DNA of 40,797 bases from Chiloscyllium plagiosum. Lineage: Eukaryota. The stretch's first letter is position 1, and the number at the start of each line of letters is the position of its first letter. Location of the stretch: positions 9,906,211 to 9,947,007 of the forward strand of contig NC_057753.1 in assembly GCF_004010195.1 (NCBI RefSeq), in the 5' to 3' direction. The translations under genes were made by a program, and so were the position numbers. The notes under the pieces are model-generated. The model did not search any database. It worked only from the letters and a program-made list of their open reading frames with translations, and was not told the DNA's origin. This document shows positions 3,705 to 31,702 of this stretch, in pieces.

Positions 3705-3787
3705 GTGGGCTTGGATCGGCGCAACATCGAGGGCCGAAGGGCCTGTACTGCGCTGTATTCTTCTATGTTCTATGTCCTATGTTCTAA
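3705..3787 (+). mobile_element. LINE (HER1/CR1-like) 3' tail
   Basis: GGGCCGAAGGGCCTGTACTG hairpin-type tail followed by (TTCTATG)n. Confidence 0.75.
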
Positions 3788-4114
3788 TTCTCCCACATCA
3801 TCCCAGGGAATAAAACAAGAAAAATGAAACAAAATTAGAAATAAATAGGTGCTTGTGGTTAATGTTTGTTCATTAGGAAGTAAACCAGAAATAGGGGTCT
3901 CCCAGGATTCTTATGGTGCCCTACCTGAGGAATTCTCTCTCCCTTACATCTAACTATTAGAACTCAGCTAAGATTTACTACAATATTTACATCAACAGAA
4001 ATAAAGCACCTATTATCAAATAGACATAGAGACATACAGCACTGATGTAGACTTTTCCTCTCTCTCAGGGACATAAAAACACAAGTCCATGGAAGTGAAT
4101 GTGTATTTGCAGAA

Positions 4115-5056
4115 TTAAAAATCACACAACACCAGGTTATAGTCCAACAGGTTTAATTGAAAGCCCTTGCTTTCGAAGTGCAGCTCCTTCATCAGGTGCT
4201 TCTGGAGAATAAGATTGTAAGACACAGAATTTATAGCAACAGTTTACAGTGCGATGTAACTGAAATTATATATTGAAAAAGACCTGGATTGTTTAAGTGT
4301 TTCATCTGTTAGAATGACCATGTTGATTTCAGTTCTTTCATATGTAAATCACAAAACATTTTAAAAACGAAAGTTACATTCCCAAGTGAACTTTACCAAT
4401 TGCTGTCAATATTAGCCCACATAATGTATTGATGGTGTGAGCTCCCCTGTGTGAGACTGTCTGTACCACAATGGCTAGACTGATTCTCATCTAAAAAGTT
4501 GATTTATGGAATCTTACATTGATTCATGCAGTTTTTGAGCAAAGTAAGATGTAATTCTGCAAGTACAAATTCACCCAACAAAGCATGTGTATGTGTGTGT
4601 GCACGTGCGTGGAGGTGTATTTGCAGATACATTCTATTTTGCTTAAAAAATGCACAATCTGCAGGCAGTCAATCCATGTAATATTTTGTAAATTCCACTT
4701 TGGAAATAGAACCAGTCTGACTCAAGATTGAGATACAGGCAAACTCTGACCTCACACCTATAATGCATTGTTTTGCTATAAAACCTTGTTATCTCGAGAA
4801 GGTGGCATACAAGAAATTCTGGGGTTTACATTGTAATGATACCTGCAAACCATTCGAAACGGTGAAAGACTTAACAATCTATGTTTGTTCAATGTAACAT
4901 TTCAGTGGCAGGACGCTGAAATGTTTTGCTGTAAATTCTGTGCCTTATGATCTTATACTCCACAACCACCTGATGAAGAAACGGCACTCCAGAAGTCACT
5001 GCTTCCTAAAAAGCCTGTGGGACTACAACCTGGTGATGTGTAATTTTTGACTTTTG
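4115..5056. mobile_element. Two Penelope-derived pLTR/UTR fragments in inverted arrangement
   Basis: 4115-4330 is approximately the reverse complement of 4850-5056; each arm has CACCTGATGAAG.. and AAACCTGTTGGACTATAACCTGGTG-like sequence. Confidence 0.7.
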
Positions 5057-5176
5057 TGCAGGTTAGAGTGGATTGGCTATGCTAAATTACCCATAGTGCC
5101 CAGGGATGTGCAGGTTAGGGTGGAATGGCCATGCAAAATTATGCATGATGTACAGGTAAGGTGCATTACTCAGGGT

Positions 5177-5490
5177 TAAGATTAGATTAGATTAGAGTGT
5201 GGAAACAGGCCCTTCGGCCCAACAAGTCCACACCGATCCGCCGAAGCGAAACCCATCCATACCCCTACATTTACCCCTTACCTAGCACTACGGGCAATTT
5301 AGTGTGGCCAATTCACCTGACCCTGCACATCTTTGTGATGTGGGAGGAAACCGGAGCACCCGGAGGAAACCCACGCAGACACGGGGAGAACGTGCAAACT
5401 CCACACAGTCAGTCGCCTGAGGCGGGAATTGAACCCGGGTCTCTGGCGCTGTGAGGCAGCAGTGCTAACCACTGTGCCACCGTGCCGCCC
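5177..5490 (-). mobile_element. Full-length HE1/V-SINE-like tRNA-derived SINE nested in an older + strand SINE (5056-5600)
   Basis: Reverse strand reads GGGCGGCACGGTGGCACAGTGGTTAGCACTG (A box), GGTTCAATTCC (B box), core GTGGGTTTCCTCCGGGTGCTCCGGTTTCCTCCCAC, (TCTAA)n tail. Confidence 0.9.
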
Positions 5491-5599
5491 ACCAGAGCAA
5501 TAGTGGTAGGGGAATGGATGTGGGTGGGTTACCCTTGGGAGGGTCGGTGTGGACTCGTGGGGCCGAGTGGCCTGTTCCCACATGGTGGGGATTCTCTGA

Positions 5600-5905
5600 A
5601 GGGAAGAGGTTTTTGAAAAGTGTGTTCGGCTGGAATGCAGCGCATGCGCAGTGTGGGCTCTGTTGACAGTTTTTACCCCGCCCCCTTTACCGTCACTTCG
5701 TTTGGCCTCGCCCCTCGTTTCTTTAATGACGTCACAGCGCGGACGTGGGCATGCCCATTTCAAAGTGAATCTCCCTCCCTCTGGGCTACTCTTCATCCTG
5801 GGAGGGAGACCGAGATGGGAAAATCTGTTCACTTGTAGCTATGGCCGTGAATCCAGGGAGGGAGCAGACTCCACAAACTCAAGTATTGTGACTCCTGTGA
5901 GGAGG
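5600..5905 (+). promoter_or_regulatory. CpG-rich ZNF-cassette promoter, copy 1
   Basis: NRF1-type GCGCATGCGC 5640-5649, GC box CCCCGCCCC, CRE TGACGTCA 5727-5734; paralogous to 12300-12545, 25720-25990 and 39230-39450. Confidence 0.6.
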
Positions 5906-5914
5906 AACGGGAGG

Positions 5915-7010
5915 ATAGAGTCACAGAGATGTACAGCATGGAAACAGACCCTTCGGTCCAACCCGTCCCTACCGACCGGTTATCCCAACCCAATCTAGTC
6001 CCACCTGCCAGCACACGGCCCATATCCCTCCAAACCCTTCCCATTCATATACCCATCCGAATGCCTTTTAAATGTTGCAACTGTACCAGCCTCCACTACT
6101 TTCTCTGGCAGCTCATTCCACACACGTACCACCCTCTGTGTGGAAAAAGTTGCCCCGAGGTCTCTCTTATATCTTTCCCCTCTCACCCTAAACCTATGCC
6201 CTCTAGTTCTGGACTCCTCAGCCCCAGGGAAAAGACTTTGTTTATTTATTCTATCCATGCCCCTCATGATTTTGTAAACCTCTATACGGTCACCCCTCAA
6301 CCTCTGACGCTCCAGGGAAAACAGCCCTAGTCTGTTCAGCCTCTTCCCATAGCTCAAATCCTCCAACCTTGGCAGCATCCTTGTAAATCTTTTCTGAACC
6401 CTTTCAAGTTTCACAACACCTTTCCGATAGGAAGACCAGAATTGCACACAATATTCCAACAGTGGCCTAACCAATGTCCTGTACAGCCGCAATATGACCT
6501 CCCAACTCCTGTACTCAATACTCCGACCAATAAAAGAAAGCATACCAAACACCGCCTTCACTATCCTATCTACCTATGACTCCACCTTCAAAGAGCTATG
6601 AACCTGCACTCCAAGGTCTCTTTGTTCAGCAACGCTCCCTAGGACTTTACCATTAAGTGTATAAGTCCTGCTAAGTTTTGCTTTCCCAAAATGCAGCACT
6701 TCGCATTTATCTGCCACTTCTCAGCCCATTGGCCCATCTGGTCAAGATCTTGTTGTAATCTGAGGTAACCTTCTTCGCTGTCCACTACACCTCCAATTTT
6801 GGTGTCATCTGCAAACTTACTAACTGTACCTCTTATGCTCGCATCCAAATCATTTACGTACATGACAAAAAGTAGAGGACCCAGCACCGATCCTTGTGGC
6901 ACTCCACTGGTCACAGGCCTCCAGTCTGAAAAACAACCCTCCACCACCACCCTCTGTCTTCTACCTTTGAGCCAGTTCTGTATCCAAAGGGCTAGTTCTT
7001 CCTGTATTCC
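5915..7010 (-). mobile_element. 5'-truncated CR1/HER1-like LINE
   Basis: SGVPQGSVLGPLLF, KFADDTKIGG, LVRPLLEYCVQFWS and 3' tail. Confidence 0.95.
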
Positions 7011-7304
7011 GAGAGAGGTTGGGGAGGGTTAGATACCTTTTCTGTTTTTATTTTTAAAATGTACCCGATTCCCACAAGTAAATTCAATGGGTGCAAGTAC
7101 AGCTCATGCAATATTCCTCATTGCAGCTTTACGCTGGCTTTGCATCCTCTGTTTTTCCTCAGCCTTGGCTCCAGCACATTCGGCTTCCTTCCCTCATCCC
7201 CATCCCCCCGCCCTGAGGTCCAAGCTGACCCCCAAAGTTCAGTTTATCCCTCCATTCTTTCCCGGTTGTCTTTGGTGGGTTTTGAAAACTTTCTGAATCC
7301 TCTG

Positions 7305-7865
7305 AGTATAAGAGTTGGGAAGTTATGTTGTAGCTGCACCAGACATTTGGTTAGGCCACTTTTGGAATGTTTTGTGCAGTTCTGGTCTCTCTGCTATAGG
7401 AAGGATGTTGTGAAGCTTGAAATGGTTCAGAAAAGATTGACAAGGATGTTTTCAGGGTTTGAGCTCAATAGGGTGGGGCTGTTTTCTTTTGCACGCCGGA
7501 GGCTATGGATTGACCTTACAAACTTTTATAAAATCATGAGGGACATGGATAGGGTAAATAGACAAGGTTTTTTCCCTGGGATTGGGTCATAGGTTTAGAG
7601 TGAGGGTAGGGGGGGAGATTTAAAAGGTACCTCAGGGGCAACGCCTATATTCAGAGGTTGGTGCGTGTGTGGCATGAGCTGCCAGACGAAGTCATGGAGG
7701 CTAGTACAACTACAGTATTTAAAAGGCATCTGGAGGAGTATATAAATAGGAAGGGTTTAGAGGGATATAGGCCAAGTTTTAGCAAATGGGACTAGATTGA
7801 TTTAGAATATCTGGTTGGCATGGACTGAACGGACTCTTTCTCTGCTGTGTATTTCTGTGACTCTG
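7305..7865 (+). mobile_element. CR1 LINE 3' fragment
   Basis: LVRPLLECFVQFWS..KDVVKLE remnant and tail; paralog at 26875-27330. Confidence 0.85.
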
Positions 7866-7983
7866 TCTTGCTACCAATGTTTGCCATGTCTGTATGATCA
7901 GTTTCTTTCTGGTGTTAATGCCTTGATGTTTCATTTTGCTCCCCACATCTTGGGGACATTAACCATTTCCCGTCTGGTTGTTC

Positions 7984-8522
7984 TGATGATCCAGGTTTCT
8001 GGGATTGGTCAATAAGCACACCTGGAAATGACTTTGTCAATCACACAAGCAATTGTTTATTCTTTGGTACGGCCAGGTCGGTAGACTGTGATCAGCCCAG
8101 AAGTATGAGTACTCCTCGAGTGCCATAAGAATTGGATAACTTAGAGTTTGCATAGAGCTTATGTACATTGTTTATAGTCAGGCATGGAGCATGATCACGT
8201 AGTAACAATCAATCAGATTTCCTGAGGTCCCCATGGTCTTTTGACTTAGCCTATCACGATTTCTTGTAAACAACCTGTTATTGAAATCGTATTTGTCCTG
8301 CCTGGTGGATAGGCTTAAACCGTAACTTCTGCGACTAATGGTTAGGGTCATATTGTTACTTCTGCGTTTGCAATTTTTTTCACTGGATTTACATCAGTCT
8401 GTAGTTTCTTGTTTATTCTGAGTATCAACCTGACTCAGTTCAGACCACTTTAGCCAAGCAGAAGCCATTTTGTGCAGCTCCTTCAGCCATTTTGTCCCAT
8501 TTCCCAGATGCCCACATCCTCG
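7984..8522 (-). mobile_element. ERV 3' LTR (~539 bp)
   Basis: On - strand it starts right after the PPT AAAGGGGGGAA (8533-8523) with CGAGGA (presumed TG>CG), has TATAAA (~8171-8176) and AATAAA (~8056-8061), and ends TCATCA. Confidence 0.75.
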
Positions 8523-8539
8523 TTCCCCCCTTTGATTGC

Positions 8540-10509
8540 ACCGCAATCACTGAAAGGGAAGGCTAATCCAAACAAGGTGTTCCAGCCATCAACATCCTCT
8601 AGTGTGGCACCACCATCTTCGCCGCTCACCTGGTCATTGCCATCGACACATGCGGGTAAGCCATCAAATCTATATCACTAAGGGAGCTCATATGATTCGC
8701 AATTAAACACTTAACAATAGCAATACCGGCATACAGAGGAAAATTATTCTGATATACATAGTTAAATTGATAAGCCCATTGTATCAAGAGCCCGATCCCC
8801 AGTTTCCCCAACTGGTCCCTTCAAGGAACACCTGGATCTCGTCTTGTTTCTTAGTAAAATTGCAAGTGCGATTGGGAATGCCCATAATGCATTTATGTTG
8901 GAAAGTAGCGCAGACCCCACCTTCCTGGGCTAGTCTAAGGTATGCTGATTCTGCATAGAATAAAGACGCAGATCTGATAATCCCAGACTAATCTGTTCCA
9001 GAGCCTCTTTAGTCTTATTTCCTAGAACGGTCAAGCTGCAAATGAGGTAATTGCAGTTCTTTTGACTTATCACCCCTACCGATCTTCCCAAACTCAGGGT
9101 ACTCAGGATTCCCCAGCCTATTGAGTGTCCTGGATTGTTACTCAGTCCCTTGGGATCCTTCCAGTTGGAGCAAGGTTAGCTGAGACAGCCCGCTGCATCC
9201 TCCTCAGATGAAGATACCATTGACTTGTCCACTGGTCAGGACAAGGTACTGTTGTGGGAGCAAGGGCTCTGATAGTGACTTTACGAAGAACATCTTTGCC
9301 ATTAAGGACAAGGAAATTGGTAGGTAGCTTTACCTTGACTGAAGAAATAGTAGCCAAGGTGTATAATAGGGACAATTTGTTAAAATAGGTTACTGAAATG
9401 TTACAGCAGAGGGTCTGGTCAGGTCTACAAGAGGAAAGGGCTGACGTTTTGCAAGAGGAGTCGCTTGTGCACCATAAAAAAATTGGCAAAGTGACTGTTG
9501 AGCGCTCGCACTGTATGGTAGACAAAGGTCGTCTGAATTCTGTTCCCATTAGGCTCTCCCTTAGTTCTGTTGCACATGGTCTTGGCGACAGTATCAGATT
9601 CTGAAAAGAGAAAAGACCTATAAATGCACTAGGGAAGGGTTCCGTTCCGGGTCTGTACATGGAGATGGGTATAGTTACTTTTGCTGCACAAGGCCTGTTG
9701 TACCCCAGCCAGTGGAACGCAAGCTGTTTGTATACATGGGAAGGAGGTATAAGGCCCCTTTTGTCTTACACGTGTGGGCAAGACAAGTCTCAAATAGGCG
9801 AGAGATGTTATGTGGAACATGAAGAATTATACACCCAGAGCCAGTTCCATTAAAGCAATTCTCATATGACCCTGCAGTGGAGTTAAAAGACTTCAGCAAA
9901 CACGTGGCAGGAGGGCTAACACAGTATTGGAAAGTGATATTTCTCTTTGGAGGGTCGGCAGTAGGAGGTCTGACGAATAGGTTGGGACTGGGGACAGGGC
10001 AAGTAAGTTATCTACCAATAGAGAAGAGTAACATACTACTGACTCTAGGATGAAGAACATTCTGTGGGCCTATATAAATAAGTTGTTTGTGGATTGAGGA
10101 GTTTCCCCTATCAGGCTTCTCTTTTATCGAGTAGGCCCATCCTGCAAAAAGGGATGGTGTTCCCGGGTTTCCTTCAAACATTTACCATAATAACGGGGTT
10201 GATCATTTTTATCCTCACTAGGCTTGTGTCTGCAGATAAAATCAAAAAGACAGGTTCAGTAACGACAAGGTAACTCTCACTGATTTCTACTGTCCACGTG
10301 GACCATATGTTTCTGATGTAAGAGTCCATGCAATAATCAATCACGTTCCACATGCCAAAGACGTCTGGTCCGGTGCACTGGACTACATCTCCTCGGCATA
10401 GGTGGTGGGTAATCTCGGATCGTTCCAGATCGCATCGACACTTAGTGGCTTTCCCCATCATGGTGTCGTACGTGATCAAACAGGTCAGTAGGTAGGCGAT
10501 CCCCCACAT
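8540..10509 (-). pseudogene. env: Endogenous retrovirus env (gamma-type TM), disrupted
   Basis: Signal peptide MWGIAYLLTCLI; furin-like RRMQR|AVS (~9190); fusion-peptide-like SIGWGILSTLSLG; ISD QNQHTLD..LAQEGGVCATFQHKC (~8890-8950); hydrophobic TM; several stops and frameshifts. Confidence 0.85.
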
Positions 10510-10649
10510 GTCCCTCCTCTTACTTCAGGTATCTGTAATAAGAATTGCATTAGAACAACAGCAAAATTCAAAAACCCAAATGGAGAGGATCCCTCGGTTT
10601 CCAGTATTCTCTCCTCCTCGTGCCCCTCTTGATTGGTGTGGCCAGTCAA

Positions 10650-11040
10650 TTTTCAATGATGCAGGTGGACCCATATCAAGCGCCCAGCGATTTTGAACGC
10701 CGTAGGGGCGGGAAGTAAAACCTGGTAGGGGCCATCCCAATGAGGTTGGAGACCTTTGCGAGTCCAGTTCTTGACGAGCACAAACGAACCAGGCTCTACC
10801 CATGACGATGCTGAAAGGGAGGGAACATCGCCATAGGCTGCATGCACCTGGGAGAGAGAGGCATGCATAATGTTGGTTAGAGCAAGTTCATAACCAATCA
10901 TTGCTTTGGTCACCTGGTGGAAGTGGACCAAGGAGACAGCCGAATCGTTCCAAGGGGTATGGAGCAGGCGACTGTTGTGTCTCACCAACAGGCGTGGGTT
11001 GCATCTGCAATAAGGCCACAGGGAGTAGCATAACTAATGC
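10650..11040 (-). pseudogene. pol: ERV pol integrase C-terminal fragment
   Basis: [21 protein letters not shown] (end of IN core) and [43 protein letters not shown] (GPY/F domain). Confidence 0.85.
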
Positions 11041-11044
11041 ATCC

Positions 11045-11517
11045 GTTAGAATACAGAAATGGCTCGATACAATAAGGAAGTATTAGTCGCTATGACCGCT
11101 AGACTACAGAAGTAGCACAATAAGATAAGGAAATGTTAACCACACTGGCTGGCTCTCGGTGCAGGTGCAGTGGCACTGTATCACAAGACAAAAGTCACCT
11201 AACCATTATGACCTAAGTTGTTTAGCAGTTAATATAATTGGATCAAGTAACTAAATAGAGTGATATCATATATTGATTGGTAATTGTCTGAATATACGAT
11301 GTGATTATGACCTATGTTCTCATTTAAGAAAAGTGTACAAGTGTCTCTGTATTAAGCCATATGTGTGCAGTTGCTCTGAGGAATTTAGAAGTGCATAACT
11401 TCTGTGTTTCTCTGCGCTCTGCACCCGGCTGCATGAAGAAATAAAGAGTGAAGTCTAAAACAGCCAGACTGAATTTGAGGGTTCATTGACCAATTGCGGA
11501 ACTGAGACACCCCACCA
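11045..11517 (+). mobile_element. LTR-like element, opposite orientation to the ERV; 5' end uncertain
   Basis: AATAAA near 11440; 3' part resembles the 7984-8522 LTR (GAGGA..CATA.CTTCTG..AATAAA..ATTGACCAAT); inverted paralog at 40440-40797. Confidence 0.55.
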
Positions 11518-11681
11518 GGGGTCCAGATCTTCACTTGCAAATTCAGATATGTGTCTTAACTACCTGGGTGAGAAGGTATGGAAGGATATAGATTGGGAAG
11601 GGGATGGGGTAGATTTCTGTTTTTATTTTATCTTTTCTATCCTGGACTGACAGTGATGACCTTTGTAATCTCTTTTCACAG

Positions 11682-12095
11682 AGTACGGGGAAGAAGCCCT
11701 TCAGCTGCCCCGAATGCGGGAAGGCTTTCAGCGATTCCTCCTCCCTGTTGAAGCATCAGCGGGCCCACATGGGGGAGAGGCCTTTCAGCTCCCAGAGTGT
11801 AGGAAGGCCTTCAGCGTTTCATCCTCCCTGCTGATGCATCAGCAGGCACACACGGGGGAGAGGCCGTTCACTTGCTCAGAGTGTGAGAGGGGGTTCAGTC
11901 AGATGAGCCAACTGAAAACACAAGCAGCTCCACTCGGGGGTGGTTCAGGTGTCCCGAGTGCGGGAAGGTGTTCACTTGCTCGGTTAAGCAGCTGACCCAC
12001 AAACGGATCCACACAGGGGAGTGGTCATTTACCAGCTTTCAGTTTGAGAAGGCCTCATACGCTACTCCCACGTGTAGAGGCTCCAGTTCACATAG
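11682..12095 (+). pseudogene. C2H2 zinc-finger pseudogene A
   Basis: Acceptor TTTTCACAG|A at 11681, then [24 protein letters not shown] and [16 protein letters not shown] with frameshifts and stops; ATG region deleted. Confidence 0.85.
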
Positions 12096-12104
12096 GGTCA
12101 AGTG

Positions 12105-12298
12105 TTGTGCAGGTTAGGGTGGATTGGCCATGCTAAATTACCCATAGTGCACAGGAATGTGCAAGTTAGGTGTATTAGTCAGGGGTAAATGTAGAGCACT
12201 AGGGGTAGGGGAATAGGTGTGGGTGGGTAACCCTTCGGAAGGTCAGTGTGGACTCGTTAGGCCGAATGGCATTGCTCCACACTGTGGGGATTCTCTGA
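12105..12298 (+). mobile_element. HE1-like SINE 3' half
   Basis: GTGCAGGTTAGGGTGGATTGGCCATGCTAAATT...GGCCGAATGGC tail. Confidence 0.8.
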
Positions 12299-12299
12299 A

Positions 12300-12545
12300 G
12301 GTAAAGGATTTTTGGAAACTGTACAGGGCAGTGCAGGCCAGGCCAGGCCAGTGGCCGCTGGCCGTTCGGAGCAAGCGCAGTCCGGCAGCATGTTTTGGGC
12401 CTCGCTCCATTGATGACGTCACAATGTGGAAGTGTCCCTGTCAAGTTTGAGTGGAACTGCCTCCCTCTGGGCAACTCTTCATCCTGGGAGGGAGAGGGTC
12501 GGACCAGGGGGAGGAAGCGAAATCAATTTTTATTTAAGGTGGGTG
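12300..12545 (+). promoter_or_regulatory. ZNF-cassette promoter, copy 2
   Basis: CpG-rich, CRE TGACGTCA 12414-12421, shared CCTCCCTCTGGGCAACTCTTCATCCTGGGAGGG. Confidence 0.55.
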
Positions 12546-13094
12546 GGTGAACTAGTCGGCATATGTTTTGGATGAGAGGGGAAAGATTATACCGAGACCC
12601 TCAGGGGCAACCTTTTCACACAATGAAGGAAAAGCTCTGCCTTTAAATTACATTCTTGAGATTTGATATTTAAAAGGAGTTCTGGGATTAACTTTCCTAA
12701 GAACAGAAACCCATTCTAAAAGATGAAAGATTTAATCTAAAATTGTTCAAGGTATGACATCTCCATGTCTCTGAAAACCCCATGTCTCTCTGTTTTACAA
12801 CACAACCCAGGGCCCTACCATGAACTGTACAAGTCCTGCCCTTCCTTGCTTTAGCAAAATGCAATCCCTCAATTTTATCCATACCCCTCTCATACACATG
12901 CTCTCTCTCAGACGCACACACTTACGCACACTCTCATGCACATGCGCATACATACAGATCTATGGGGTGAATTTGTTTTGGCAGAATATTTGCAGATACA
13001 TTTAATTTTGTTCAAAGAACGCACAATCTGCTGGCAGTCAATCCATGTAATACTTTATTAATTCCTATATTGGAAATAGAATCAGTTTGATTCA

Positions 13095-15350
13095 TTATGG
13101 GGGACTGTAACTTCCCCAACATTGACTGAAAATGCTTTCACTCTAGTATGTTGTATGGATCAGTTTTTGTCCAATGTGTGCAGTAGGGTTTTCTGACAGT
13201 GTGTTGAAGAGCCGACAAGAGGGGAGGCCACACTGGATCTGGCCAGGTGTTTGATTTAGTGGTAGGGGAGCACTTTGGAGAGAATGACCATAATTCAGTT
13301 ACGTTTAGTTTATCGATGGAAAGGGATAGGAACATGCCGCGGGACAAGAATTATCGATGGGGCAAGGGCAATTATAATGCGATTAGGCAAGACTTAGGAT
13401 GCATAGAATGGGGTAGCAAAATGCAGGGGATGGGGACAATTGAAATGTGGAGCTGGTCCAAGGAACAGATATGGCATGTCCTTGATTGGATGTCACTGTC
13501 AGGCAGGGAGGAAGTGATAAGGTAAGGGAATCGTGGTTTACTCCAGAAATTGCATCTCTTGTTAAGTAGAAGAAGGAGATTTATATGACAATGAGACGAG
13601 ATGGTTCAGATAAGGTGATGAAGAGTTACAGATTAGCTAGGAAGGATTTAAAGAGAGAGTTAAGAGGAGCAAAGAGAGGACATGAGCAGTCTTTAGAAGA
13701 TAGGATAAAGGAGAACCCTAAAGCTTTCTATACGTATGTGAGGAATAAGAGGATGACTAAGTAGGAATAGGGCCAGTCAAAGACAGAATTGGGAAATTGT
13801 GTGTGGACCCTGTGGAGATTGGAGAGGTGTTAACGAATATTTCTCATCGGTCTTCACTCAGGAAAAGGACAATATTGTACAGGAGAAGAATGAGATACGA
13901 GATATTAGACCAGAAATGATCGAAGGTTAGTATGGAGGAGGTGCTATCAATTCTAAAGGAGTGAAAGTAGATAAGTCCCCTGGGCTGGATGGGATTTATC
14001 TGAGGATTCTCTGGAAAGCATGGGAGGAGATGGCAGGACCTTTAGCTTTTATCTTTGACTCATCATTGTCTACAGGTTTAGTACCAGAGGAGTGGAGGTG
14101 TGCAAATGTTGTACCCTTGTTCAAGAAGGGCAGTAGAGATTATAGACCAGTGAGCCTTATGTCTGTTGTAGGGAAACTTTTGGAAAGATTATAAGAGAGA
14201 GGATTTATAATCATCTAGCAAGCAACAAATTGATTTCAGATAGTCAAAATGGTTTTGTCAAAGGCAGGTCATTTCTCACAGACCTCATTGAGTTTTTTGA
14301 GAAGGTGACCAAGCATGCGGATGAGGTTATGACAGTTAACATGGTATACATGGACATCCGTAAAGCCTTTGATTAGGTTCCATGTGGTAGCCTGTTGGAG
14401 AAAATGCAGAGGCTTGGGATTGGGGGTGATTTAGCAGTTTGGATTAGAAACTGGCTTTCTGAAAGAAGGCAGCGAGTGTTGCTTGATGGAAAATATTCAG
14501 CCTGGCGTCTGGTTACTAGTGGTGTGCCACAAAGATCTGTTTTGTGACCAATGCTGTTTGTCATTTTTATAAATGACTTAGATGTGGACATAGGTGGATG
14601 GGTTAGTAAGTTTGCAGTTGGCACTAAAGTTGGTGGAGTAGTGAACAGTGTGAAAGAATGTTACAGGTTGCAGGGGGACTTGAATAAACTGCAGAATTGG
14701 GCTGAGAAGTGGCAAATGGAGTTGAATGCAGCTAAATGTGAGGTGATTCACTTTAGGAAGAATAACAGGAAGGCAGAATACCGGGTCAACGGAAAGGTTC
14801 TTGATAGTGTGAATCTTGGAGTCCATGTACATAAATCCCTGAAGGTTGCCACCCAGGTTGATAGTGCTGTTAAGAAGGCATATGGTGTGCTAGGTTTTAT
14901 TGGTAGAGGGATTGAGCTCCAGAGCCGTAACGTCATGCTGCAACTATACAAAACGCTAGTGTGGCTGCACTTGGAATATTTTGTAATGTTCTGGTTGCCC
15001 CATTACAGGATCTGGAAGCATTGGAAAAGGTACAGAGGAAATTTATCAGGATGTTGACTGGACAGGAGCGAAGGTCTTTAAGACTGAGACACTTGGGTCT
15101 GTTCTCATTGGAAAGAAGCTGAAAATGTGTTGCTGGAAGGGCTTATGCCCGAAACGTAGATTCTCCTGTTCCCTGGATGCTGCCTGACCTGCTGCGCTGT
15201 TCCAGCATCACATTTTCAGCTCTGATCTCCAGCATCTGCAGACGTCACTTTCTCCTCATTGGAAAGAAGGCAGTTAAGAAGGGATTGATAGAGACAAACA
15301 AGATAATCAGAGGATTAGATAGCGTGGACAAATGAAAGTCTTTGAGGGGT
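13095..15350 (+). mobile_element. Long degenerate CR1 LINE ORF2 (endonuclease end through RT)
   Basis: GEHFGENDHNSVTF, KSPGLDGIY, ANVVPLFKKG..YRPVSL, IFINDLD..SKFA; many disruptions. Confidence 0.92.
15117..15256 (+). mobile_element. Short Penelope-derived insertion with inverted 5' tail and TSD
   Basis: AGCTGAAAATGTGTTGCTGGAA inverted against TTCCAGCATCACATTTTCAGCT; flanked by duplicated CTCATTGGAAAGAAG (15104-15118, 15255-15269). Confidence 0.8.
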
Positions 15351-15369
15351 GATAGATGTAAGAAGTGCG

Positions 15370-16430
15370 GTAAAGAGAAGCCAGGGACCTATAGATCGGT
15401 GAGCCTGACCTCAGTGGTGGGCAAGTTGTTGGAGGGAATCCTGAGGGAAAGGAGGTACATGTATTTGGAAAGGTAAGGACTGATTCACAATAGTCAACAT
15501 GGCTTTGTGCATGGGAAATCATGTCTCACAAACTTGATTGAGTTTTTTGAAGATGTAACAAAGAAGATTGATGAGGCCAGAGCAGTAGATGTGATTTATA
15601 TGGACTTCAGTAAGGCGTTTGACAAGGTTCCCCATGGGAGACTGATTAGCAAGGTTAGATCTCATGGACTACAGAGAGAACTAGCCATTTGGATACAGAA
15701 CTGGCTCAAAGGTAGAAGACAGAGGATGGTGGTGGAGGGTTGTTTTTCAGACTGGAGGCCTGTGATCAGTGGAGTGCCACANNNNNNNNNNNNNNNNNNN
15801 NNNNNNNNNNNNNNNNNNNNNNNNNNNNNNNNNNNNNNNNNNNNNNNNNNNNNNNNNNNNNNNNNNNNNNNNNNNNNNNNNNNNNNNNNNNNNNNNNNNN
15901 NNNNNNNNNNNNNNNNNNNNNNNNNNNNNNNNNNNNNNNNNNNNNNNNNNNNNNNNNNNNNNNNNNNNNNNNNNNNNNNNNNNNNNNNNNNNNNNNNNNN
16001 NNNNNNNNNNNNNNNNNNNNNNNNNNNNNNNNNNNNNNNNNNNNGCTGTTTTCTCTGGAGCGTCAGAGGCTGAGGGGTGACCTTGTAGAGGTTTACAAAA
16101 TTATGAGGGGCATGGATAGGATAAATAGACAAAGTCTTTTCCCTGGGGTCGGGGAGTCCAGAACTAGAGGGCATAGGTCTCTTTTATATCTTTTCCCTCT
16201 CACCCTAAACCTAAGGGGCAACTTTTTCACGCAGAGGGTGGTAAGTGTATGGAATGAGCTGCCAGAGGATGTGGTGGAAGCTGGTACAATTGCAACATTT
16301 AAGAGGCATCTGGATGGGTATATGAATAGGAAGGGTTTGGAGGGATGTGGGCTGGGTGCTGGCAGGTAGGACTAGATTGGGTTGGGATATCTGGGTCTGT
16401 TTCCATGCTGTACATCTCTATGACTCTATC
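15370..16430 (+). mobile_element. CR1/HER1-like LINE (RT to tail, spans an N gap)
   Basis: GKSCLTNLIEFFE..VDVIYMDFSKAFDKVPH and 3' tail. Confidence 0.93.
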
Positions 16431-16775
16431 TATTGGTTTTGAAACTTCCATCTTCAGATCTTCAAATAATCAGTAAAAAGAGATCAAAAGGCATCACTGT
16501 CAGTGCAGGGTAGAAATTCAGAACAAGCAAATCTATTTTCTGTGGAAAATTTTCTTTTGTCATTTCACAAAATTGAAAGCACCATCCCACTTTCTCTCCC
16601 TCTGCTCTAACTAATTCTTACAGGGACAGAAAAGCAAACATGTCAAGAATGACATCTCTGCATTTTTGATAACTCCACCTGAAAGTTAATATCTTTCACA
16701 ACATTGGGATACTGCTGAGTGAGCAGGTCTGATTTTGGGAAGCAAAAAAAACCCAATGAATTTGCAACAACCCTT
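16431..16775 (-). pseudogene. Orphan ZNF-cassette intron and small non-coding exon (16678-16622); finger exon missing
   Basis: Paralog of 21360-21720 and the reverse complement of 34050-34425; TTTCAG|GTGGAG acceptor and GTAAG donor. Confidence 0.7.
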
Positions 16776-16777
16776 TC

Positions 16778-16965
16778 CCTTCAGAGAATCGCCACAGTAT
16801 GGAAGCAGGCCACTCGACCCAACGAGTCCACACCGACCCTCCGAAGGGTAACCCCCCCACACCCATTGCCCTACCCCTATTGCTCCACATTTCCCTCTAA
16901 CTAAAGCACCTAACCTGTACATCCCTGGGCACTGTGGATAAGTTAGCACTGTCAATCCATCCCAA
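16778..16965 (-). mobile_element. HE1-like SINE 3' half
   Basis: Reverse complement of the SINE tail seen at 5491-5600. Confidence 0.75.
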
Positions 16966-16969
16966 TCCG

Positions 16970-17440
16970 GACTAAGTTAAAAATCACACAACACCAGGTT
17001 AGAGTCCAACAAATTTATTTGGAAGGAGCAGCATTCGGAGCACTTCTTCATCAGGTGTTGTGGAGAATAAGATCAGAAGGCACAGAAATCTTGGAAAAAC
17101 AGTAGTGTCCTGCCACTGAATCGATATATTGAACAAACCTGGATGGGTTGCAATTAGCATTAGTATGTAAATCTGAGAAATTCTTGTTGGTCACCTTCTC
17201 GAGATAACTTAAGGTTTTATTGCAAAAGGTGACATCTCAGTTCAGGCAATGCATTAAAGGTGTACGGTCAGGTCAAATTCTGTCTGTATCCCAATCTTGA
17301 GTCAGACTGTTTCTGTATCCACTGTGGAATCTACAAAATATTACATGGATTATCTGCCTGCATTTTTTGAGTAAAATAGAATGTAATTGCAAATATAATT
17401 CTGCAAATTCAAATTCACCCCCATGGACTTGTGTGTATGT
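16970..17440 (-). mobile_element. Penelope-derived pLTR/UTR fragment
   Basis: AAAATCACACAACACCAGGTT..CTTCATCAGGTG; reverse complement of the 4612-5056 family. Confidence 0.7.
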
Positions 17441-17605
17441 GCATGAGAGGAAAAAAAAGTATATTTCTGTGCTGTATATTAAAAGACAGTGAGGGTAAAA
17501 AGCACAAGCCCCAGTAAAAGCAGATGGAAAGTGAGTGTAAAATTTCAATATGACAGGACAGGCCCCACATTCCTTCCCCTCCGTCCCCCCCACAACCTGC
17601 CTCAC

Positions 17606-17858
17606 CTTTCACCTCCCGGGCCCAGTACCTTCCAGGTGGCCCCATAGTTGACACAGGGGCCGCCCCACGACCAGTAGAACTCCACCACCCAGGCGGCCGA
17701 CGAGTTCCCAAGCAGGCCCTTAACCCCGTCCGCCTTCAAAATGGTCACCGGCTCCTGTACAGGCGGCCGGTGTGGCCGTGACACAGCAGTTGCGCCAGGA
17801 AGGCGGCGGTGAGGGGTGTTTGCCCCGGCCGCACGGCGCCGCTTCCCCGCACGAGCAA
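17606..17858 (-). pseudogene. QSOX2: Isolated QSOX-family (QSOX2-like) exon 1: signal peptide and start of the thioredoxin domain, disabled
   Basis: ..AAFLAQLLCHGHTGRLY/EPVTILKADGVKGLLGNSSAAWVVEFYWSWGGPCVNYGATWKVL/AREVK then G|GTGAGG donor. Resembles recalled QSOX2 ARLY..[33 protein letters not shown]. Two frameshifts, WCGHC>WGGPC, no ATG. Confidence 0.8.
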
Positions 17859-17960
17859 CTTCTCCTCACAACCACCTCAACGCCACGTGACGTCAGTTCG
17901 GGGGGGGGGGGGGGAGATGGGCGGGGCCGGGGGAGCCTCACCGTCACCAAACAACAGCCA
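17859..17960 (-). promoter_or_regulatory. CpG promoter of the QSOX-like exon
   Basis: GCCACGTGACGTCA (17882-17895; overlapping CRE and CCACGT/E-box), GC box GGGCGGGG 17919-17926. Confidence 0.6.
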
Positions 17961-18409
17961 CCTCGCGCTACAACTGCTCATTCACAAAAACAAACTGTCT
18001 TGTTTCGCTCCACAACTGCAGGGGGGACTCTGCCACGTTTCGAGGAGCCCTGTCCGCATTGTGAAAACTCACAGCTCAATTTAGAGATATTCCTTTAAAC
18101 TGTCATCTCCAAATGGGGAAATTAGCATCTTAAAAGGGATTTTAATGGACATTTTAATGGGCTATTACTACAAAGAGATTTAAATGGACAAGATAGATTA
18201 TATTTCAAAGGGATGTGGGCACATTCAAAGGTGTATCTTAATATCTAAATAAATGTACATTTCGAAGAGATGCTACCCTATTTACAAACAGAAATATCCC
18301 TTTGAGACAAGAGGTGTGAATTATGTCTGTATCCCAATGTTGAGTCAGACTGACATTTTTCTTAGAAAAGTTCTGCATTTAAATTACATTGTTGAGAAGT
18401 TAATTGATA

Positions 18410-19110: not shown

Positions 19111-19659
19111 TCTAGTGAACATAGCCCACACCTCCCGGTGCTGCCATTAACCTTTACAATGCAGATGAAACGACACAGTCTGCACTCCTGAAAAATTTAC
19201 AATGTCTAACGATACGAGCTACTCATTCACTGCTCCTTCTGATACACGACATTGGAAACTTAGTGCAGGAGGCTGAAAGAAATGAGCAGCTTTAAAACAA
19301 AAACCTCTTGGAGTTCAAAGCCTTCAGTGAGAGCCTGAGTCCAGCAGAAAGTTCAGGTAACCTTTATTGTGAACCAACTTTGTTAGAGCTTCCGATCCCC
19401 CCACCAAAGAGGCACACAAAAAGTAGCTGGTTTTTAAACAGCTGAAGGTCAAAGTGCACACGCTTCCCCACCATCTCACTTTCTTTACTATTGGTTAGCA
19501 CTGACTTGTTCTGTTGTAAATGGATCCTTGGTACAGCCTTAACCCGGAGGAAGTATTGCCTCACTCAGCAATTTCAACCCATACCCTGTATCCAAGTAAG
19601 TTTCTCCCCACTCATTTGCCAGGGGTGGGGGCAGGATGGTTTGGCAGGGGGGTGGGAAA

Positions 19660-19960
19660 GACAGTATAGAGTCAACCACACTGCTGTGGGTCTGGAGTCA
19701 CATGTAGGCCAGACAGGGTAAAGGATGCAGCTGGGATGACTGAGAATCCTTTGCCACAACTGCATTTTCCTTTCCTAAAAAGGATGTGAGTGAATCAGAT
19801 GGGGTTTTTTGCCCCTGCCACACCACCAAAAATGGTTTCACTGTTAAGATTCTGAACTCCCGATTTCTGACTGAATTCTATTTCCACCATATGCCACAGC
19901 AGGATTCAAACCCGGTCGTCGCTGGAACTGGGTTGATATCCAGTTGATATTGGCACTCTG
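19660..19960 (-). mobile_element. Deu-domain (SacSINE1-like) SINE remnant in the ZNF 3'UTR
   Basis: Reverse strand GGGTTTGAATCC..TGGCATATGGTGGAA and TCTGGCCTACATGTGACTCCAGACCCACAGC; paralog at 35430-35685 (+). Confidence 0.6.
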
Positions 19961-19971
19961 CCCTCACTCCT

Positions 19972-20993
19972 TCAATCCCGTTGCAGTGGTACATGAACTC
20001 GCTGGTGCCTCCGCAGGTTGGAGAGCGGGTGAAGCCCTTCCTGCATTCAGGGCAGCTGAAGGGCCTCTCCCCAGTGTGGATCTGCCAGTGCATCAACAGG
20101 TTGGATGCCTGGGTAAAGCCCCTCCCACATTCTGGACAGCTGTAGGGCCTCTGCCCCGTGTGGACCCGCCGGTGGGGAAGTAGGTGGGAGGCCCGGGTAA
20201 AGCCCTTCCTGCACTTGGGGCACTGAAAGGCCTCTTCCCCCGTATGGACCTGTTGGTGCCTCAGTAGTACGGAGGAATTGCTGCTCCACCAGTCAATCAT
20301 GAACTCACTGGTGCCTCCGCAGATGGGAGGAGCGGGTGAAGGCCTTCCCACACTTGGGCAGCTGAAGGCTCTCTCCCCAGTATGGACCTGCCGGTGCTTC
20401 ACCAGGGCAGAGGAATTTCTGAAGGCGTACCCACATTTGGAACAGCTAACAGGCCTCTCCCCCCGTGTGGACATGCTGGTGCTTCAGCAAGTCAGAAAAA
20501 TAGTTGAAGGCCTTCCCGCACTCAGGGCAACTGAAGGGCTTCTCCCCAGTATGGATCCGCCGTTGCGTGCGCAGGTTGCTCACCTGACTGAATCCCTTCC
20601 CACACTCGGGGCACAAGAATGGCATTTCTTCAGTGTGGATCTGCCGGTGGGTCAGCAGGATGGATGCCTGGGTAAAACACTTCCCACACACGGGGCAGCT
20701 GAAGAGCCTCTCCCCTGTGTGGACTCGCCGGTGCTTCAGCAGAATGGAGGAATTGCTGAAGATCTTCCTGCACTCAGTGCAGGGGATCGGTCTCTCCCCT
20801 GTGTGGACCTGCTGGTGGGTCTGCAGGGCGGATGAATTGCTGAAGGCCTTCCCGCACACAGGGCAGGAGAACGGCCTCTCCCCGGTGTGACTGCGCAATG
20901 AATCTCCAGGGCAGACTGAGCACAGAAGCCTTTTCCACAGTTGCCACACTTCCACGGTTTCTCCACAGGGCGGGATTCCTCAGGTTTCTCCAT
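19972..20993 (-). pseudogene. C2H2 zinc-finger pseudogene B (about 11-12 fingers, no KRAB)
   Basis: MEKPEESRPVEKPWKCGNCGKGF then tandem [14 protein letters not shown] fingers split over several frames; acceptor at 21399-21400, upstream exon 21649-21592, AATAAA 19368-19363. Confidence 0.9.
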
Positions 20994-21894
20994 GGCTGTA
21001 GATTCAGCCGCACACAACGTGTAGAGCCCCTCCACATCGTGAATTCCTCTTTCCAGCCTGTATAACTGTTTCAGGCTCCACACTCAGTACACTGCAACAG
21101 TAGGGTCTCTCATCCAGTCCCACTGATGCTGAAAATGTATTCAAACAGGAACCAAAAAGCTTTGCTCCTTCTCACAGAATCATATTTGAAAATTGTTGCG
21201 GTCCTGATGGATTGAGTGACTGTCAGACGTTGACGTCAAAATGAGGACTCCAGGCACTGCAGAGTCAGAGTCGAGAAATGTGGCACTGGAAAAGCACGGT
21301 AGGTCAGGTAGCATCCAAGGAGCAGAAGATTCAATGTTTCGGGCATAAGTCCCTCATCTGTTGATTTTGAAACTTCTGTCTTCAGATCGTCAAATACTCT
21401 GTAAAGAGAGATTACAAACGTCATCACTGTCAGTCCAGGGTAGAAATTCAGAACAAACAATTCCACTTTCTGTGGAATATTCTTTTCTTTTGTTATTCCA
21501 CAAAATTGAAAGCACCATCCCACTCTCTCACCCCCTCTGTTCTCACTCCGCTCTAACTAATTTTCCTGAAGGTGCTGATTCAGGATCTTACAGGGCAGGA
21601 AAGTAAAAACGTCTAGAATGACGTCCCTCTGAATTTTGGATAACTCCACCTGAAAGTTAATATCTTTCACAACACAGTGATACTGCTGAGAGTGAGCGGG
21701 TCTGATTTTGGGAAGCAAAAGAAAAGGGTGCGTCAATGCAATGCAGTTTCTTGAGGAACAACCAGAAATGAAATGGTTAACGTCCCCAGGGAAAAATGGG
21801 GGCAGGGGGAATGAGGTGGAGACACCAAGGCATTTACACCAACACTAGAGAGAAACTAAACATACAGACGTGACAAACATTGTTGGAAAGCCAG

Positions 21895-25548: not shown

Positions 25549-25719
25549 CAATGAAGGGTAGGGATTTTTGCAAACTATGATTTCTTCCTGTTCTGCTGCA
25601 GGGGCAGCACAGGGACGTCGATTTCGAAGTTCCTTGGATGCTGCCTGAACTGCTGTGCTCTTCCAGCACCACTAATCCAGAATCTGGTTTCCAGCATCTG
25701 CAGTCTTTGTTTTTAACCA

Positions 25720-25990
25720 CAGTGCGGTCGAGCCGACCTAGCGCCCGATATCCGTATCGCCCCATTGTGACGTCACAATGCGGATTTGGCCCTGTCAGTT
25801 TCAGAGTGAATCTCCCTCCCTCTGGGCAACTCCTCCCCCCCCCCCCAGGATGAGAGAAAGAGAGAGAGGCGGGGGTGGGGGGGGGGGGTTTGGTGGGGGA
25901 ATCTGTTCACTTGTATCAACTGGAGTGAATCCAGGGAGGGGGCAGACTCTGCAAACTTAATTACCCAGTTGAGGAGGGACGGAAGGAAGG
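25720..25990 (+). promoter_or_regulatory. ZNF-cassette promoter, copy 3 (Penelope fragment at 25615-25718 just upstream)
   Basis: Perfect 18-bp palindrome CATTGTGACGTCACAATG 25763-25780; shared GTGAATCTCCCTCCCTCTGGGC. Confidence 0.55.
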
Positions 25991-26874: not shown

Positions 26875-27330
26875 GAGTCTCGGACTTGGGAGTTTATGTT
26901 GTGGCTGTACAGGACATTGTTCGGCCACTTTTGGAATATTGTGTGCAATTCTGGTCTCCCTGCTATTGGAAGGACGTTGTGAAACTTGAAAGAGTTCAGA
27001 AAAGATTTACAACGATGTTGCCAGGGTTTGAGCTAAATAGGTTGGGGCTGTTTTTCATAGTGAGCCAGAGGCTCAGGGGTGACCTTGTGGACGTTTATAA
27101 AATCATGAGAGGCATTGATAAGGGAAATAGTCAAGTCTTTTACTGGGATGGGGAGTCCAGATCTAGAGGGTAATAGATTAGGATGAGTGGGGGAAAATAC
27201 TTAAATGGTACCTCAGGGGCAGCTTTTTCATGCAGAGGGTGGTTGTATAAGGAATGAGCTGTCAGAGGTAGCGGTGGATGCTGATATAATAATGATATCT
27301 AAAAAGCATCTGAATGGGTGTAGGAAGGGT
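26875..27330 (+). mobile_element. CR1 3' fragment
   Basis: VRPLLEYCVQFWSPCYWKDVVKLERVQKRF. Confidence 0.88.
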
Positions 27331-27331
27331 T

Positions 27332-28320
27332 GAGTGTGGGGGAAGGGATTTATCCGCTCCTCCCAACTCTTAGACCACTGACGGGTCCACACCGGGGAGA
27401 GGCCCTTCCCCTGCTCTGAACGCAGGAAGGGCTTCAGCAGTTCCTCCTCCCTGCTAACACACCAGCGGATCCACACCGGAGAGAGACCATTCACCTGCCC
27501 TGAGTGTGGGAAGGGCTTAACTCAGCCCTCCCAACTGCTGACACACCAGCGGGTCCACACTGGGGAGATGCCATTCGCCTGCCCAGTGTGTGGGAAGGGC
27601 TTTGCGGTCTCTTCCAAACTCCTGGCCCACCGGCAGGTCCACACACGGGAGAGGCCCTTCAGTGGTTAGCACTGCTGCCTCACAGCGCCAGAGACCCGGG
27701 TTCAATTCCCTCAGGCGACTGACTGTGTGGAGTTTACACGTTCTCCCTGTGTCTGCGTAGGTTTCCTCCGGGTGCTCCGGTTTCCTCCCACAGTCCAAAG
27801 ATGTGTAGGTCAGGTGAATTGGCCATGCTAAATTGCCCGTAGTGTTAGGTAAGTGGTAAATGTAGGGGTATGGGTGGGTTACGCTTCGGCGGGTCGGTGT
27901 GGACTTGTTGGGCCGAAGGGCTTGTTTCCACACTGTAATGTAATGTAAATGTAATCTGTCCAGAGTACAGGAAGGCCTTCAGCTATTCCTCCCACCTGCT
28001 GAGGCGCCAGCAGGTCCACACTGGGGAGAAGCCGTTCTCCTGCCCAGCGTGCGAGAAATGCTTTAACCGCTCCTCCCACCTACTGACCCACCGGCGGGTC
28101 CACATGGGGCAGGACAACGGCCACTCCCCTGAGTGCAGGAAGGGCTTCAGCAATTCTTCCGCTCTGCTGACCTAAGGGCGGGTCCATACAGGGGAGAGAC
28201 CATTTAGCTGCACCGCTTGTGGTAAGAGATTCACATTTTCCAGCAACTTGCGAAGACGCCAGCGGGGGGCACCAGTGCTCCCAACAATCAGATTCCACCA
28301 GTGACGCTACTGTGGACTAA
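27332..28320 (+). pseudogene. C2H2 zinc-finger pseudogene C, 5'-deleted and SINE-interrupted
   Basis: [26 protein letters not shown] and HTGEKPFSCPACEKCF fingers with stops; SINE at 27660-27957. Confidence 0.88.
27660..27957 (+). mobile_element. Young HE1-like SINE inserted in ZNF C
   Basis: Closely similar to the 5177-5490 copy; (TGTAA)n tail; splits PFS|CPE codons. Confidence 0.9.
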
Positions 28321-29610: not shown

Positions 29611-30359
29611 CTGGTCCTGATGTAAGTTTTAAAATTGAGTCCAAATAACTTTCAATAGTTCAGTCTTGTTGAGCTCATTTCTTGAAAGGTTTCAAATGAA
29701 TCCCTCCAAGTGATACTGTTTAAAAATGCTGAGTTGGACAAAATATCCCATTAAGTTCGACACAAACTCACAGCTGAAGACATCAGAAGTCACGAGACAC
29801 AAAGTTATAGTCCAACAGGTTTATTTGAAATCACAAGCTTTAGGAGCATTGCTCCTTCTNNNNNNNNNNNNNNNNNNNNNNNNNNNNNNNNNNNNNNNNN
29901 NNNNNNNNNNNNNNNNNNNNNNNNNNNNNNNNNNNNNNNNNNNNNNNNNNNNNNNNNNNNNNNNNNNNNNNNNNNNNNNNNNNNNNNNNNNNNNNNNNNN
30001 NNNNNNNNNNNNNNNNNNNNNNNNNNNNNNNNNNNNNNNNNNNNNNNNNNNNNNNNNNNNNNNNNNNNNNNNNNNNNNNNNNNNNNNNNNNNNNNNNNNN
30101 NNNNNNNNNNNNNNNNNNNNNNNNNNNNNNNNNNNNNNNNNNNNNNNNNNNNNNNNNNNNNNNNNNNNNNNNNNNNNNNNNNNNNNNNNNNNNNNNNNNN
30201 NNNNNNNNNNNNNNNNNNNNNNNNNNNNNNNNNNNNNNNNNNNNNNNNNNNNNNNNNNNNNNNNNNNNNNNNNNNNNNNNNNNNNNNNNNNNNNNNNNNN
30301 NNNNNNNNNNNNNNNNNNNNNNNNNNNNNNNNNNNNNNNNNNNNNNNNNNNNNNNNNNN

Positions 30360-30726
30360 GCTTCAACGCATCCCTCAACACGTAGTCGTGGACCTTGGAA
30401 TGTGCCAGTCTGCAGCATTCAGTCAGGGTCAACTCCTTCAGCTGGAAGATCAGCAGGTTTCGGACCGCCCAGAGAGCGTCCTTCACCGAGTTGATGATCC
30501 TCCAGGCACAGGTGATGTTCGTCTCGGTGTGCATCCCGGGGAACAGACCGTAGAGCACGGAGTCCCGTGTCACGGCGCTGCTGGGGACGAACCTTGACAA
30601 ACACTCCAGACTTCCTCTGCATGGGCACATTCCAGAAGGAGGTGTGTGACAGTCTCGTCCCCCCCCGCAGCCGCTTCGAGGGCAGCGTGCGGTGCGGCTG
30701 AGAGTCCGGGCGTGCATAAAGGATCT
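30360..30726 (-). mobile_element. Tx1-clade LINE ORF2 C-terminus (inverted arm)
   Basis: Reverse complement of 30781-31160. Confidence 0.88.
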
Positions 30727-31351
30727 TCCAACAAGCACCAAGACATGGCTTGGCTGGTGGTGAGAAGGGCTCTGCCTGTGAGATCCTTTATGCACGCCCG
30801 GACTCTCAGCCGCACCGCACGCTGCCCTCGAAGCGGCGGCGGTGGGGACAAGACTGTCACACACCACCTTCTGGAATGTGCCTATGCAGAGGAAGTCTGG
30901 AGAGGAATGCAGTGGTGTCTGTCGAGGTTCGTCCCGAGCAGCGCCGTGACGCGGGACTCCGTGCTCTACGGCCTGTTCCCCGGGACGCACACCAAGACGA
31001 ACATCAACTGTGCCTGGAGGATCAGCAACTCGGTGAAGGACGCTATCTGGGTGATCCGAAACCTGCTGATCTTCCAGCTGAAGGAGTTGACCACGACTGA
31101 GTGCTGCAGACTGGCACATTCCAAGGTCCAGGACTACGTGTTGAGGGACGCGCTGAAGCTTGGGGCAGCTGCCGCCAAGGCACGGTGGGGAAAGACCACT
31201 GTGTAAAGTCTGCCTGCCTAAAGAAGAACAGGGGGCCCATGCAGTCATTTGGGCTCAGCTGACGCCTCAGCTATTTGTATGGGCATATGATTGAAAAATG
31301 TACAGACCTGTATAAAAATGATAAATTCTGATCTCTGTATATACATGTTTA
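30727..31351 (+). mobile_element. Tx1-clade LINE ORF2 C-terminal zinc-binding region and 3'UTR
   Basis: LPVRSFMHAR..CPRSGGGGDKTVTHHLLECAYAEEVW..IWVIRNLLIF, stop at 31206. Confidence 0.88.
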
Positions 31352-31702
31352 CATATGTATGGCATGACCAANNNNNNNNNNNNNNNNNNNNNNNNNNNNN
31401 NNNNNNNNNNNNNNNNNNNNNNNNNNNNNNNNNNNNNNNNNNNNNNNNNNNNNNNNNNNNNNNNNNNNNNNNNNNNNNNNNNNNNNNNNNNNNNNNNNNN
31501 NNNNNNNNNNNNNNNNNNNNNNNNNNNNNNNNNNNNNNNNNNNNNNNNNNNNNNNNNNNNNNNNNNNNNNNNNNNNNNNNNNNNNNNNNNNNNNNNNNNN
31601 NNNNNNNNNNNNNNNNNNNNNNNNNNNNNNNNNNNNNNNNNNNNNNNNNNNNNNNNNNNNNNNNNNNNNNNNNNNNNNNNNNNNNNNNNNNNNNNNNNNN
31701 NN

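Follow-up and report, generated by a model that had tools for sequence, protein, structure and literature searches.

Why would the promoter and first exon of a sulfhydryl oxidase gene lie among broken zinc-finger (ZNF) genes, and does this promoter now serve other sequences? The question is raised by a stretch of 40,797 nucleotides from the bamboo shark Chiloscyllium plagiosum (hereafter the window), in which a preliminary description had noticed a QSOX2-like leader, the start of a thioredoxin (Trx) domain, a splice donor and a CpG promoter. All of these are borne out at 17990-17606 (-) by tblastn, a PDB match and CpG o/e. The window copy is, in our view, probably a decayed member of an element that bamboo sharks carry in many copies, in which the promoter and exon 1 of QSOX2 were duplicated into ZNF-cluster DNA and act, within the family, as a portable promoter.

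The QSOX2 module and its surroundings

The window is a gapped scaffold with five runs of N. It holds broken C2H2 ZNF genes (Pfam zf-C2H2) and plentiful LINE fragments (Pfam RVT_1), and the features that bear on our question are the following:

17843-17990 (-): QSOX2-derived CpG-rich promoter and 5' leader, from motif positions and CpG o/e
about 17842-17840 (-): site of the lost QSOX2 start codon, with parent residues 2-11 aligning at 17839-17810
17755-17839 (-): signal-peptide-coding leader of QSOX2 exon 1, from three tblastn frames
17620-17754 (-): start of the Trx1 domain, 45 codons, matching QSOX1 structures and QSOX2
17604-17621 (-): family-wide +1 frameshift (about 17621) and intact donor AAG/GTGAGG (17606/17605); LGPGGE in 22 of 22 sister models
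17480-17605 (-): unique intron start, putatively co-duplicated with the exon; single copy in the window
16761-17477 (-): two interspersed repeats in the intron (17477-16970, with AATAAA at 17221 and 17019, and 16965-16761), with many copies in the window
16425-16760 (-): orphan 5' part of a ZNF cassette, 78-81% identical to 21356-21724 and 33977-34430
16045-16430 (+): 3' end of a LINE truncating the cassette at about 16430, from self-comparison
about 11160-12050 (+), 20000-21725 (-), 34070-35350 (+) and 39545-40797 (-): ZNF cassette repeats, from self-comparison
27330-28260 (+): additional zinc fingers, from self-comparison

By tblastn, parent QSOX2 matches a single site in the window, 17839-17620, where its alignment is divided among three frames. 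The Trx1 piece, 17754-17620 (-), matches bamboo-shark QSOX2 at 76-78% identity (tblastn E 4e-22), QSOX1 in the PDB at E 1e-9 and Pfam Thioredoxin at E 0.014, which is below the curated cut-off. No other QSOX2 exon was found in the window, in agreement with the preliminary description: the next-best tblastn match (E 0.58), parent residues 180-207 against 21694-21599, was rejected as chance. The promoter stretch keeps the character of a CpG island, with CpG o/e of 0.75 and GC of 0.66 over 17606-17990 (window background 0.34), and its putative motifs comprise a CRE-like TGACGTCA (17895-17888), an overlapping E-box CACGTG (17889-17884) and a GC box (17919-17924).

The enzyme itself is not encoded here. 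The CxxC motif, WCGHC in 13 of 13 parent and outgroup QSOX2 rows, had been read as WGGPC at 17667-17653 (-), and this reading is confirmed both in the window and in 22 sister models; in addition, the ATG is deleted, the frame is broken three times and no other exon is present. A lost ATG at 17858 had been suggested, which we reject given that parent residue 2 aligns at 17839 and thus sets the site immediately upstream of it. Sisters carry 5-9 extra residues at this site, which, judged from protein sequences, would correspond to a deletion of 15-26 nt in the window copy. Frameshifts had also been claimed, and these stand, yet against the parent they number three (about 17813, 17755 and 17621) rather than two. 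The first two are deletions in the leader that are absent from most sisters.

Is this a copy of the gene or of its mRNA? A retrocopy might appeal to the LINE machinery that abounds in the window (RVT_1), but the match ends at the exon 1 donor, GT intron sequence follows in place of exon 2, and upstream promoter DNA is included, which makes a retrocopied origin very improbable. The locus is likewise no processed pseudogene, as it retains the donor, the beginning of the intron and the upstream island, and lacks exon 2. The preliminary description had argued for duplication at the DNA level, a view that is upheld by the retained donor and unique intron start, by the missing exon 2 and by a parent on another chromosome. 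The structure found is that of a 3'-truncated duplicate: promoter, first exon and donor were copied at the level of DNA, and an intact parent lies elsewhere.

Beyond the donor, the intron consists largely of the two repeats, which we take to be MER-like (17477-16970) and SINE-like (16965-16761), and which are matched by zero-difference contigs in each of three runs, X1, X14 and X6. X1 and X6 are called RNA-like and X14 DNA-like by pattern, the library type of X14 being a guess, and a fourth run, X24 (of which about 2% was read), is the only one on record as RNA. The orphan cassette retains the acceptor AG at 16680-16679, as previously reported, with a weak pyrimidine tract (9/18). The acceptor used by sisters, at 16472-16471, is TG in the window copy (AG>TG; alignment A2) and in the 34k cassette, whereas all contigs aligned at 16472 have the AG form. 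Beyond the LINE 3' end lies an N gap (15782-16044), and no ZNF coding sequence was found on the minus strand of 1-16045.

In three cassettes, the acceptor that the sisters use, at the 5' end of the ZNF-bearing exon, is found about 390-410 nt upstream of the MEKP start of the ZNF. The window further holds four related GC-rich elements, each adjoining a SINE-like repeat, at 5620-5900 (+), 12320-12770 (+), 25580-25900 (+) and 38994-39450 (-) (alignment A3), in which the same CRE word occurs at 5727, 12414 and 25768, with a variant near 39300. These cassette-linked elements probably represent the promoters and first exons native to the ZNF genes, in which case the QSOX2 module would offer a second, alternative front end.

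Several side observations concern the same surroundings. The 34k cassette (33977-34430) is a sister of the orphan cassette, with the acceptor loss in common and the same repeat upstream, and a gap of 965 N (32997-33961) sits at the expected place of a second QSOX-like exon (about 33218-32923). Long inverted duplications of 78-87% identity (13004-14589 with 36191-37950, and 19118-19989 with 35391-36171) connect the 21k and 34k ZNF units and their flanks. GC-rich retrotransposon fragments at 29821-32997, which include an inverted arrangement flanked by N gaps (30360-31159), are presumably Tx1/L1-like, and ORF fragments at 9142-11033 are, we assume, remnants of retroviral-type integrase and envelope. 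A repeat at 18311-18397, which lies 400 nt upstream of the exon, has pieces in common with the native-promoter elements (at 12629-12661 and 39099-39132). It also has a weak match (E 0.11) in the exon-2 tail of one sister model, P0006, perhaps as a sign that splicing reaches into the flank of the next tandem copy; owing to this E value and a large gap, the match (18378-18340) was left out of the tally of tails given below.

A family of copies in bamboo sharks

The closest proteins to the 45-residue Trx piece come from bamboo sharks (Hemiscylliidae). A search with these residues gave 11 matches, of which 8 are short RefSeq proteins with 89-93% identity. Their clusters expand to 22 RefSeq models with WGGPC, all of them predictions, which represent 12 distinct exon-1 parts in three species: five in H. 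ocellatum (4 contigs), four in C. punctatum and three in C. plagiosum (2 contigs). What had been described as a stray element belongs to a family and is not a one-off. The parental gene, whose location the preliminary description had left to a search, is an intact QSOX2 that adjoins LHX3, and in each species the family copies sit on contigs other than that of the parent. Separately, three database models (P0011, P0034 and P0047, from C. plagiosum, C. punctatum and S. canicula) fuse QSOX2 with its neighbour LHX3, which is either read-through splicing or an annotation artefact.

All 12 distinct copies share six amino-acid changes, including both changes in CxxC, which occur in no parent or outgroup. 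The preliminary description had cautioned that changes toward G/C could be sequencing errors; given that those around CxxC are common to 12 of 12 sister exon-1 sequences and to no parent or outgroup, this caveat fails. As a side observation, the six changes fall within 16 codons surrounding the active site (17628-17673), a clustering that is not significant (P 0.06), and by single-base routes five of the six are transversions and four of the six lead to G.

Could the window copy instead be a real QSOX2 exon 1, distorted by sequencing error or misassembly? The assembly is gapped, the stretch is GC-rich, and two private letters of the window copy, 17820 and 17851, are matched by no aligned contig and may be errors. 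However, WGGPC occurs in three species and the intact parent is separate, which refutes an error in CxxC; both flanks of the locus are covered by zero-difference contigs in X1, X14 and X6, and X14 holds contigs of the window form. One of these, at a depth of about 8.8, has the window letters at 17728-17744; another (7 differences, 1 gap) spans the three deletions at window length, and record 15 crosses the lost-ATG site at that length as well (162 letters over 161 nt, 1 gap), with the reservation for X14, as for X1, that the run could share its source with the window. Taken together, we regard an error or misassembly as hardly credible.

When did the family arise? In a tree of 44 columns and 21 rows, which included 8 of 13 family sequences, the family forms one clade (support 100/99) that groups, unresolved, with hemiscylliid and Stegostoma QSOX2. 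Column 2 of the family still reads P and its leader LL, as opposed to S and a single L in 3 of 3 hemiscylliid parents. Since these two ancestral states were kept by the family and lost in all three parents, the duplication predates the common ancestor of the parents and hence the split between Hemiscyllium and Chiloscyllium. We claim no age in years, as the available parts of PMC8455134 and PMC10587355 hold nothing relevant. Residues diagnostic of the species are common to each species' copies, in all three species, which points to repeated re-amplification within each species. At column 4, T, the ancestral state, is still present in the window copy, as opposed to S in the sisters that are abundant and expressed in the runs examined; the window copy therefore stands outside the young subfamily.

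When species are compared, the number of differences in the 44 residues is 0-1 for the parents and 2-8 for the copies (means 3.9-5.3), and protein constraint has therefore been relaxed. This bears on the alternative that the product of the family is a secreted micro-protein, functional though redox-dead, made of a signal peptide and half a Trx domain, for which loss of CxxC was selected. Several models (P0002, P0004 and P0016) do have a single frame that runs from the ATG through the leader into the Trx piece, and the six family-wide changes are invariant in every copy. Against this, the copies diverge several times faster than the parent, their leaders are frameshifted differently, their tails are unrelated, the search itself favours open frames and the clustering of changes misses significance. 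A selected micro-protein is therefore quite unlikely.

The size of the family can be gauged from X14, in which sister contigs reach a depth of about 1920 at two separate places as compared to about 8.8 for the locus-specific contig; this ratio of about 220 hints at a family of about 200 copies, a crude figure from one run of guessed library type, in which depth is not copy number. A scan of metagenomes gave 41 pattern matches, of which 0 were confirmed. A profile search over 1.84 billion representatives gave no further WGGPC protein and no QSOX-ZNF fusion among 147 newly fetched matches, nor was either found among 104 long matches. Absence of the element outside Hemiscylliidae is weakly indicated by these searches, which cover annotated proteins, and the whale-shark QSOX2 model is without exon 1. 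In literature listings, no description of the element was found, and supplementary gene tables of shark genome papers could mention its loci.

Transcription and splicing from the copied donor

Sister copies are transcribed. Depth over the exon core exceeds that over the intron start 11-26-fold in X1 and 79-135-fold in X6, as compared to 0.7-2.1-fold in the DNA-like X14, whose high-depth sister contigs cover 17544-17548 in the intron start. Raw RNA reads of X24 run 28.3 versus 2.6 in the direction expected for minus-strand RNA, and at 17744 all 11 of 11 X24 reads have the S codon of the family and not the T of the parent. Depth in the RNA-like runs drops above about 17830; the translation of the sister models starts at an ATG equal to 17981 and runs through the promoter and leader stretch.

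The copied donor is also used. Three X6 contigs depart from the alignment exactly at 17606/17605 and go on into letters that spell ATRS, a tail also borne by P0007, P0008 and P0013, three models from H. ocellatum, and further loose ends in X6, at 17811 and 17750, reveal the extra letters of sisters at the two leader deletions. Where does the donor lead? Of 22 model tails, 13 were long enough for comparison with the window: two match the 5' end of the ZNF-cassette exon (P0005, 14/15 residues, E 2e-11; P0020, E 2e-9), five match antisense LINE (E 4e-4 to 0.12), one is weak and five are without a match in the window. The tails RYLK, RYLN and RYLDT might come from the cassette acceptor and were too short to be counted. 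Given the five tails without a match and the weak one, most splicing from the donor may be noise. Loci spliced to an intact ZNF, in turn, would probably be annotated as ZNF genes and so escape our searches, and the tally is therefore biased against ZNF targets. No transcript was found that connects exon 1 with an intact ZNF ORF, and none of the proteins found combines exon 1 with C2H2 fingers.

For the family, the strand bias of X24 reveals transcription in the sense direction, the X6 loose ends at 17605 and the RefSeq tails reveal that the copied donor is spliced to foreign exons, and at this level promoter donation likely holds. The preliminary description had proposed promoter capture at the window locus itself, with the donor splicing to the cassette mini-exon at 16678. 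In its favour, donor and acceptor AG are intact, the CpG island is kept, and no second CpG island lies between exon 1 and the cassette. Moreover, low-depth (6-24) zero-difference contigs, unspliced, cover the intron and upstream flank of the locus in X1 and X6, and could reflect weak transcription of the window copy. The proposed 17606-16678 junction is not among the 15 joints listed, and 192 joints and 868 loose ends are obscured by repeat noise, among which it could lie. On the other hand, 0 of 22 sister tails start with RW, the reading expected from this acceptor; the mini-exon bin is not enriched over the adjacent intron bin (0.79 in X1, 1.01 in X6); and the pyrimidine tract is weak and no ZNF ORF follows. 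The reads at the locus carry sister letters: non-window letters are found in X24 in 11 of 11 reads at 17736-17744, 15 of 15 at 17763 and 14 of 14 at 17790, and at the same positions no X1 contig carries the window letters. A search for sequencing runs that contain the sequence listed none on record as RNA, a result without bearing on expression. Promoter donation is supported for the family, as X6 contigs leave the donor and two RefSeq models enter the ZNF-cassette exon, and an active window copy splicing to 16678 is unlikely. The window copy is probably an older, decayed and silent member, with a truncated ZNF exon downstream.

The following history is probable on these observations. Before Hemiscyllium and Chiloscyllium split, a 3'-truncated DNA-level duplication brought the CpG promoter, exon 1, donor and intron start of QSOX2 into ZNF-cluster DNA. 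CxxC and the reading frame were lost once, before the piece spread, most likely together with tandem ZNF units, and each species then re-amplified it from a different master. Transcription begins in the CpG island, and any acceptor that happens to lie downstream can receive the donor, whether at the 5' end of the exon that bears the ZNF or in cryptic exons, of which antisense LINE is an example. The short frame left from QSOX would act as an upstream ORF and not as an enzyme; intact ZNF proteins might be made from such transcripts, and the module might thereby exert real control of ZNF genes.

A probable promoter-donating duplicate and its relatives

Most documented cases of promoter donation by partial duplication are single events of recent date in apes. 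In bamboo sharks, a single captured host promoter would have persisted since before two shark genera split, multiplied and been turned over in each species, all inside ZNF clusters, and it is this lineage-wide amplification of a promoter-donating duplicate that would be new. A bolder reading, which we put forward tentatively and hold to be possible rather than probable, is that the captured promoter and first exon form a standard module, re-amplified to some 100-200 copies, and that this module has replaced the native promoter in driving a considerable subfamily of intact C2H2 ZNF genes, the QSOX frame being disabled and kept only as an upstream ORF. If the module does drive intact ZNF genes, a fast-turnover ZNF family can exchange its whole regulatory front end for the promoter of a host gene.

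Compared to known systems, the QSOX2-like element is a single-exon module amplified across a shark family, and neither a functional QSOX nor a retrocopy. It resembles its parent QSOX2 (P0012, P0028 and P0029) in exon 1 sequence, donor position and identity over the Trx piece, and differs from it in that the window copy has no ATG, three frameshifts, WGGPC and none of the later domains of the parent (Pfam PF18108, PF18371 and PF04777). The short Hemiscylliidae models named 'sulfhydryl oxidase 1/2-like' in RefSeq (for example XP_072411752.1, XP_043538291.1 and XP_060677569.1) are automatic models of this same element and bear enzyme names even though the active site is gone, so that 22 RefSeq proteins without the active site are named sulfhydryl oxidase-like.

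Human 3'-truncated duplicates (such as NOTCH2NL-NBPF, ARHGAP11B and SRGAP2B/C) are, in the portion of the source available to us, described as young, more than 99% identical and multi-exon (PMC6169893). Like the shark element, they keep ancestral 5' regulatory sequence, are transcribed, are often spliced into downstream duplicated sequence and rarely keep the ORF; the shark element, in contrast, is old, single-exon, catalytically destroyed and turned over per species. The accessible part of the report on NPEPPSP1-TBC1D3 describes one 110-kb duplication beside one paralog, with a donor ORF of 449 codons and measured expression (PMC12871316). Both cases combine the partial duplication of an unrelated gene and its promoter beside a tandem gene family with a fusion transcript and separate ORFs of donor and recipient. 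Unlike NPEPPSP1-TBC1D3, the shark module measures about 0.5 kb or somewhat more, comprises one exon with a dead active site, numbers at least 12 copies across three species and has a putative effect on ZNF expression.
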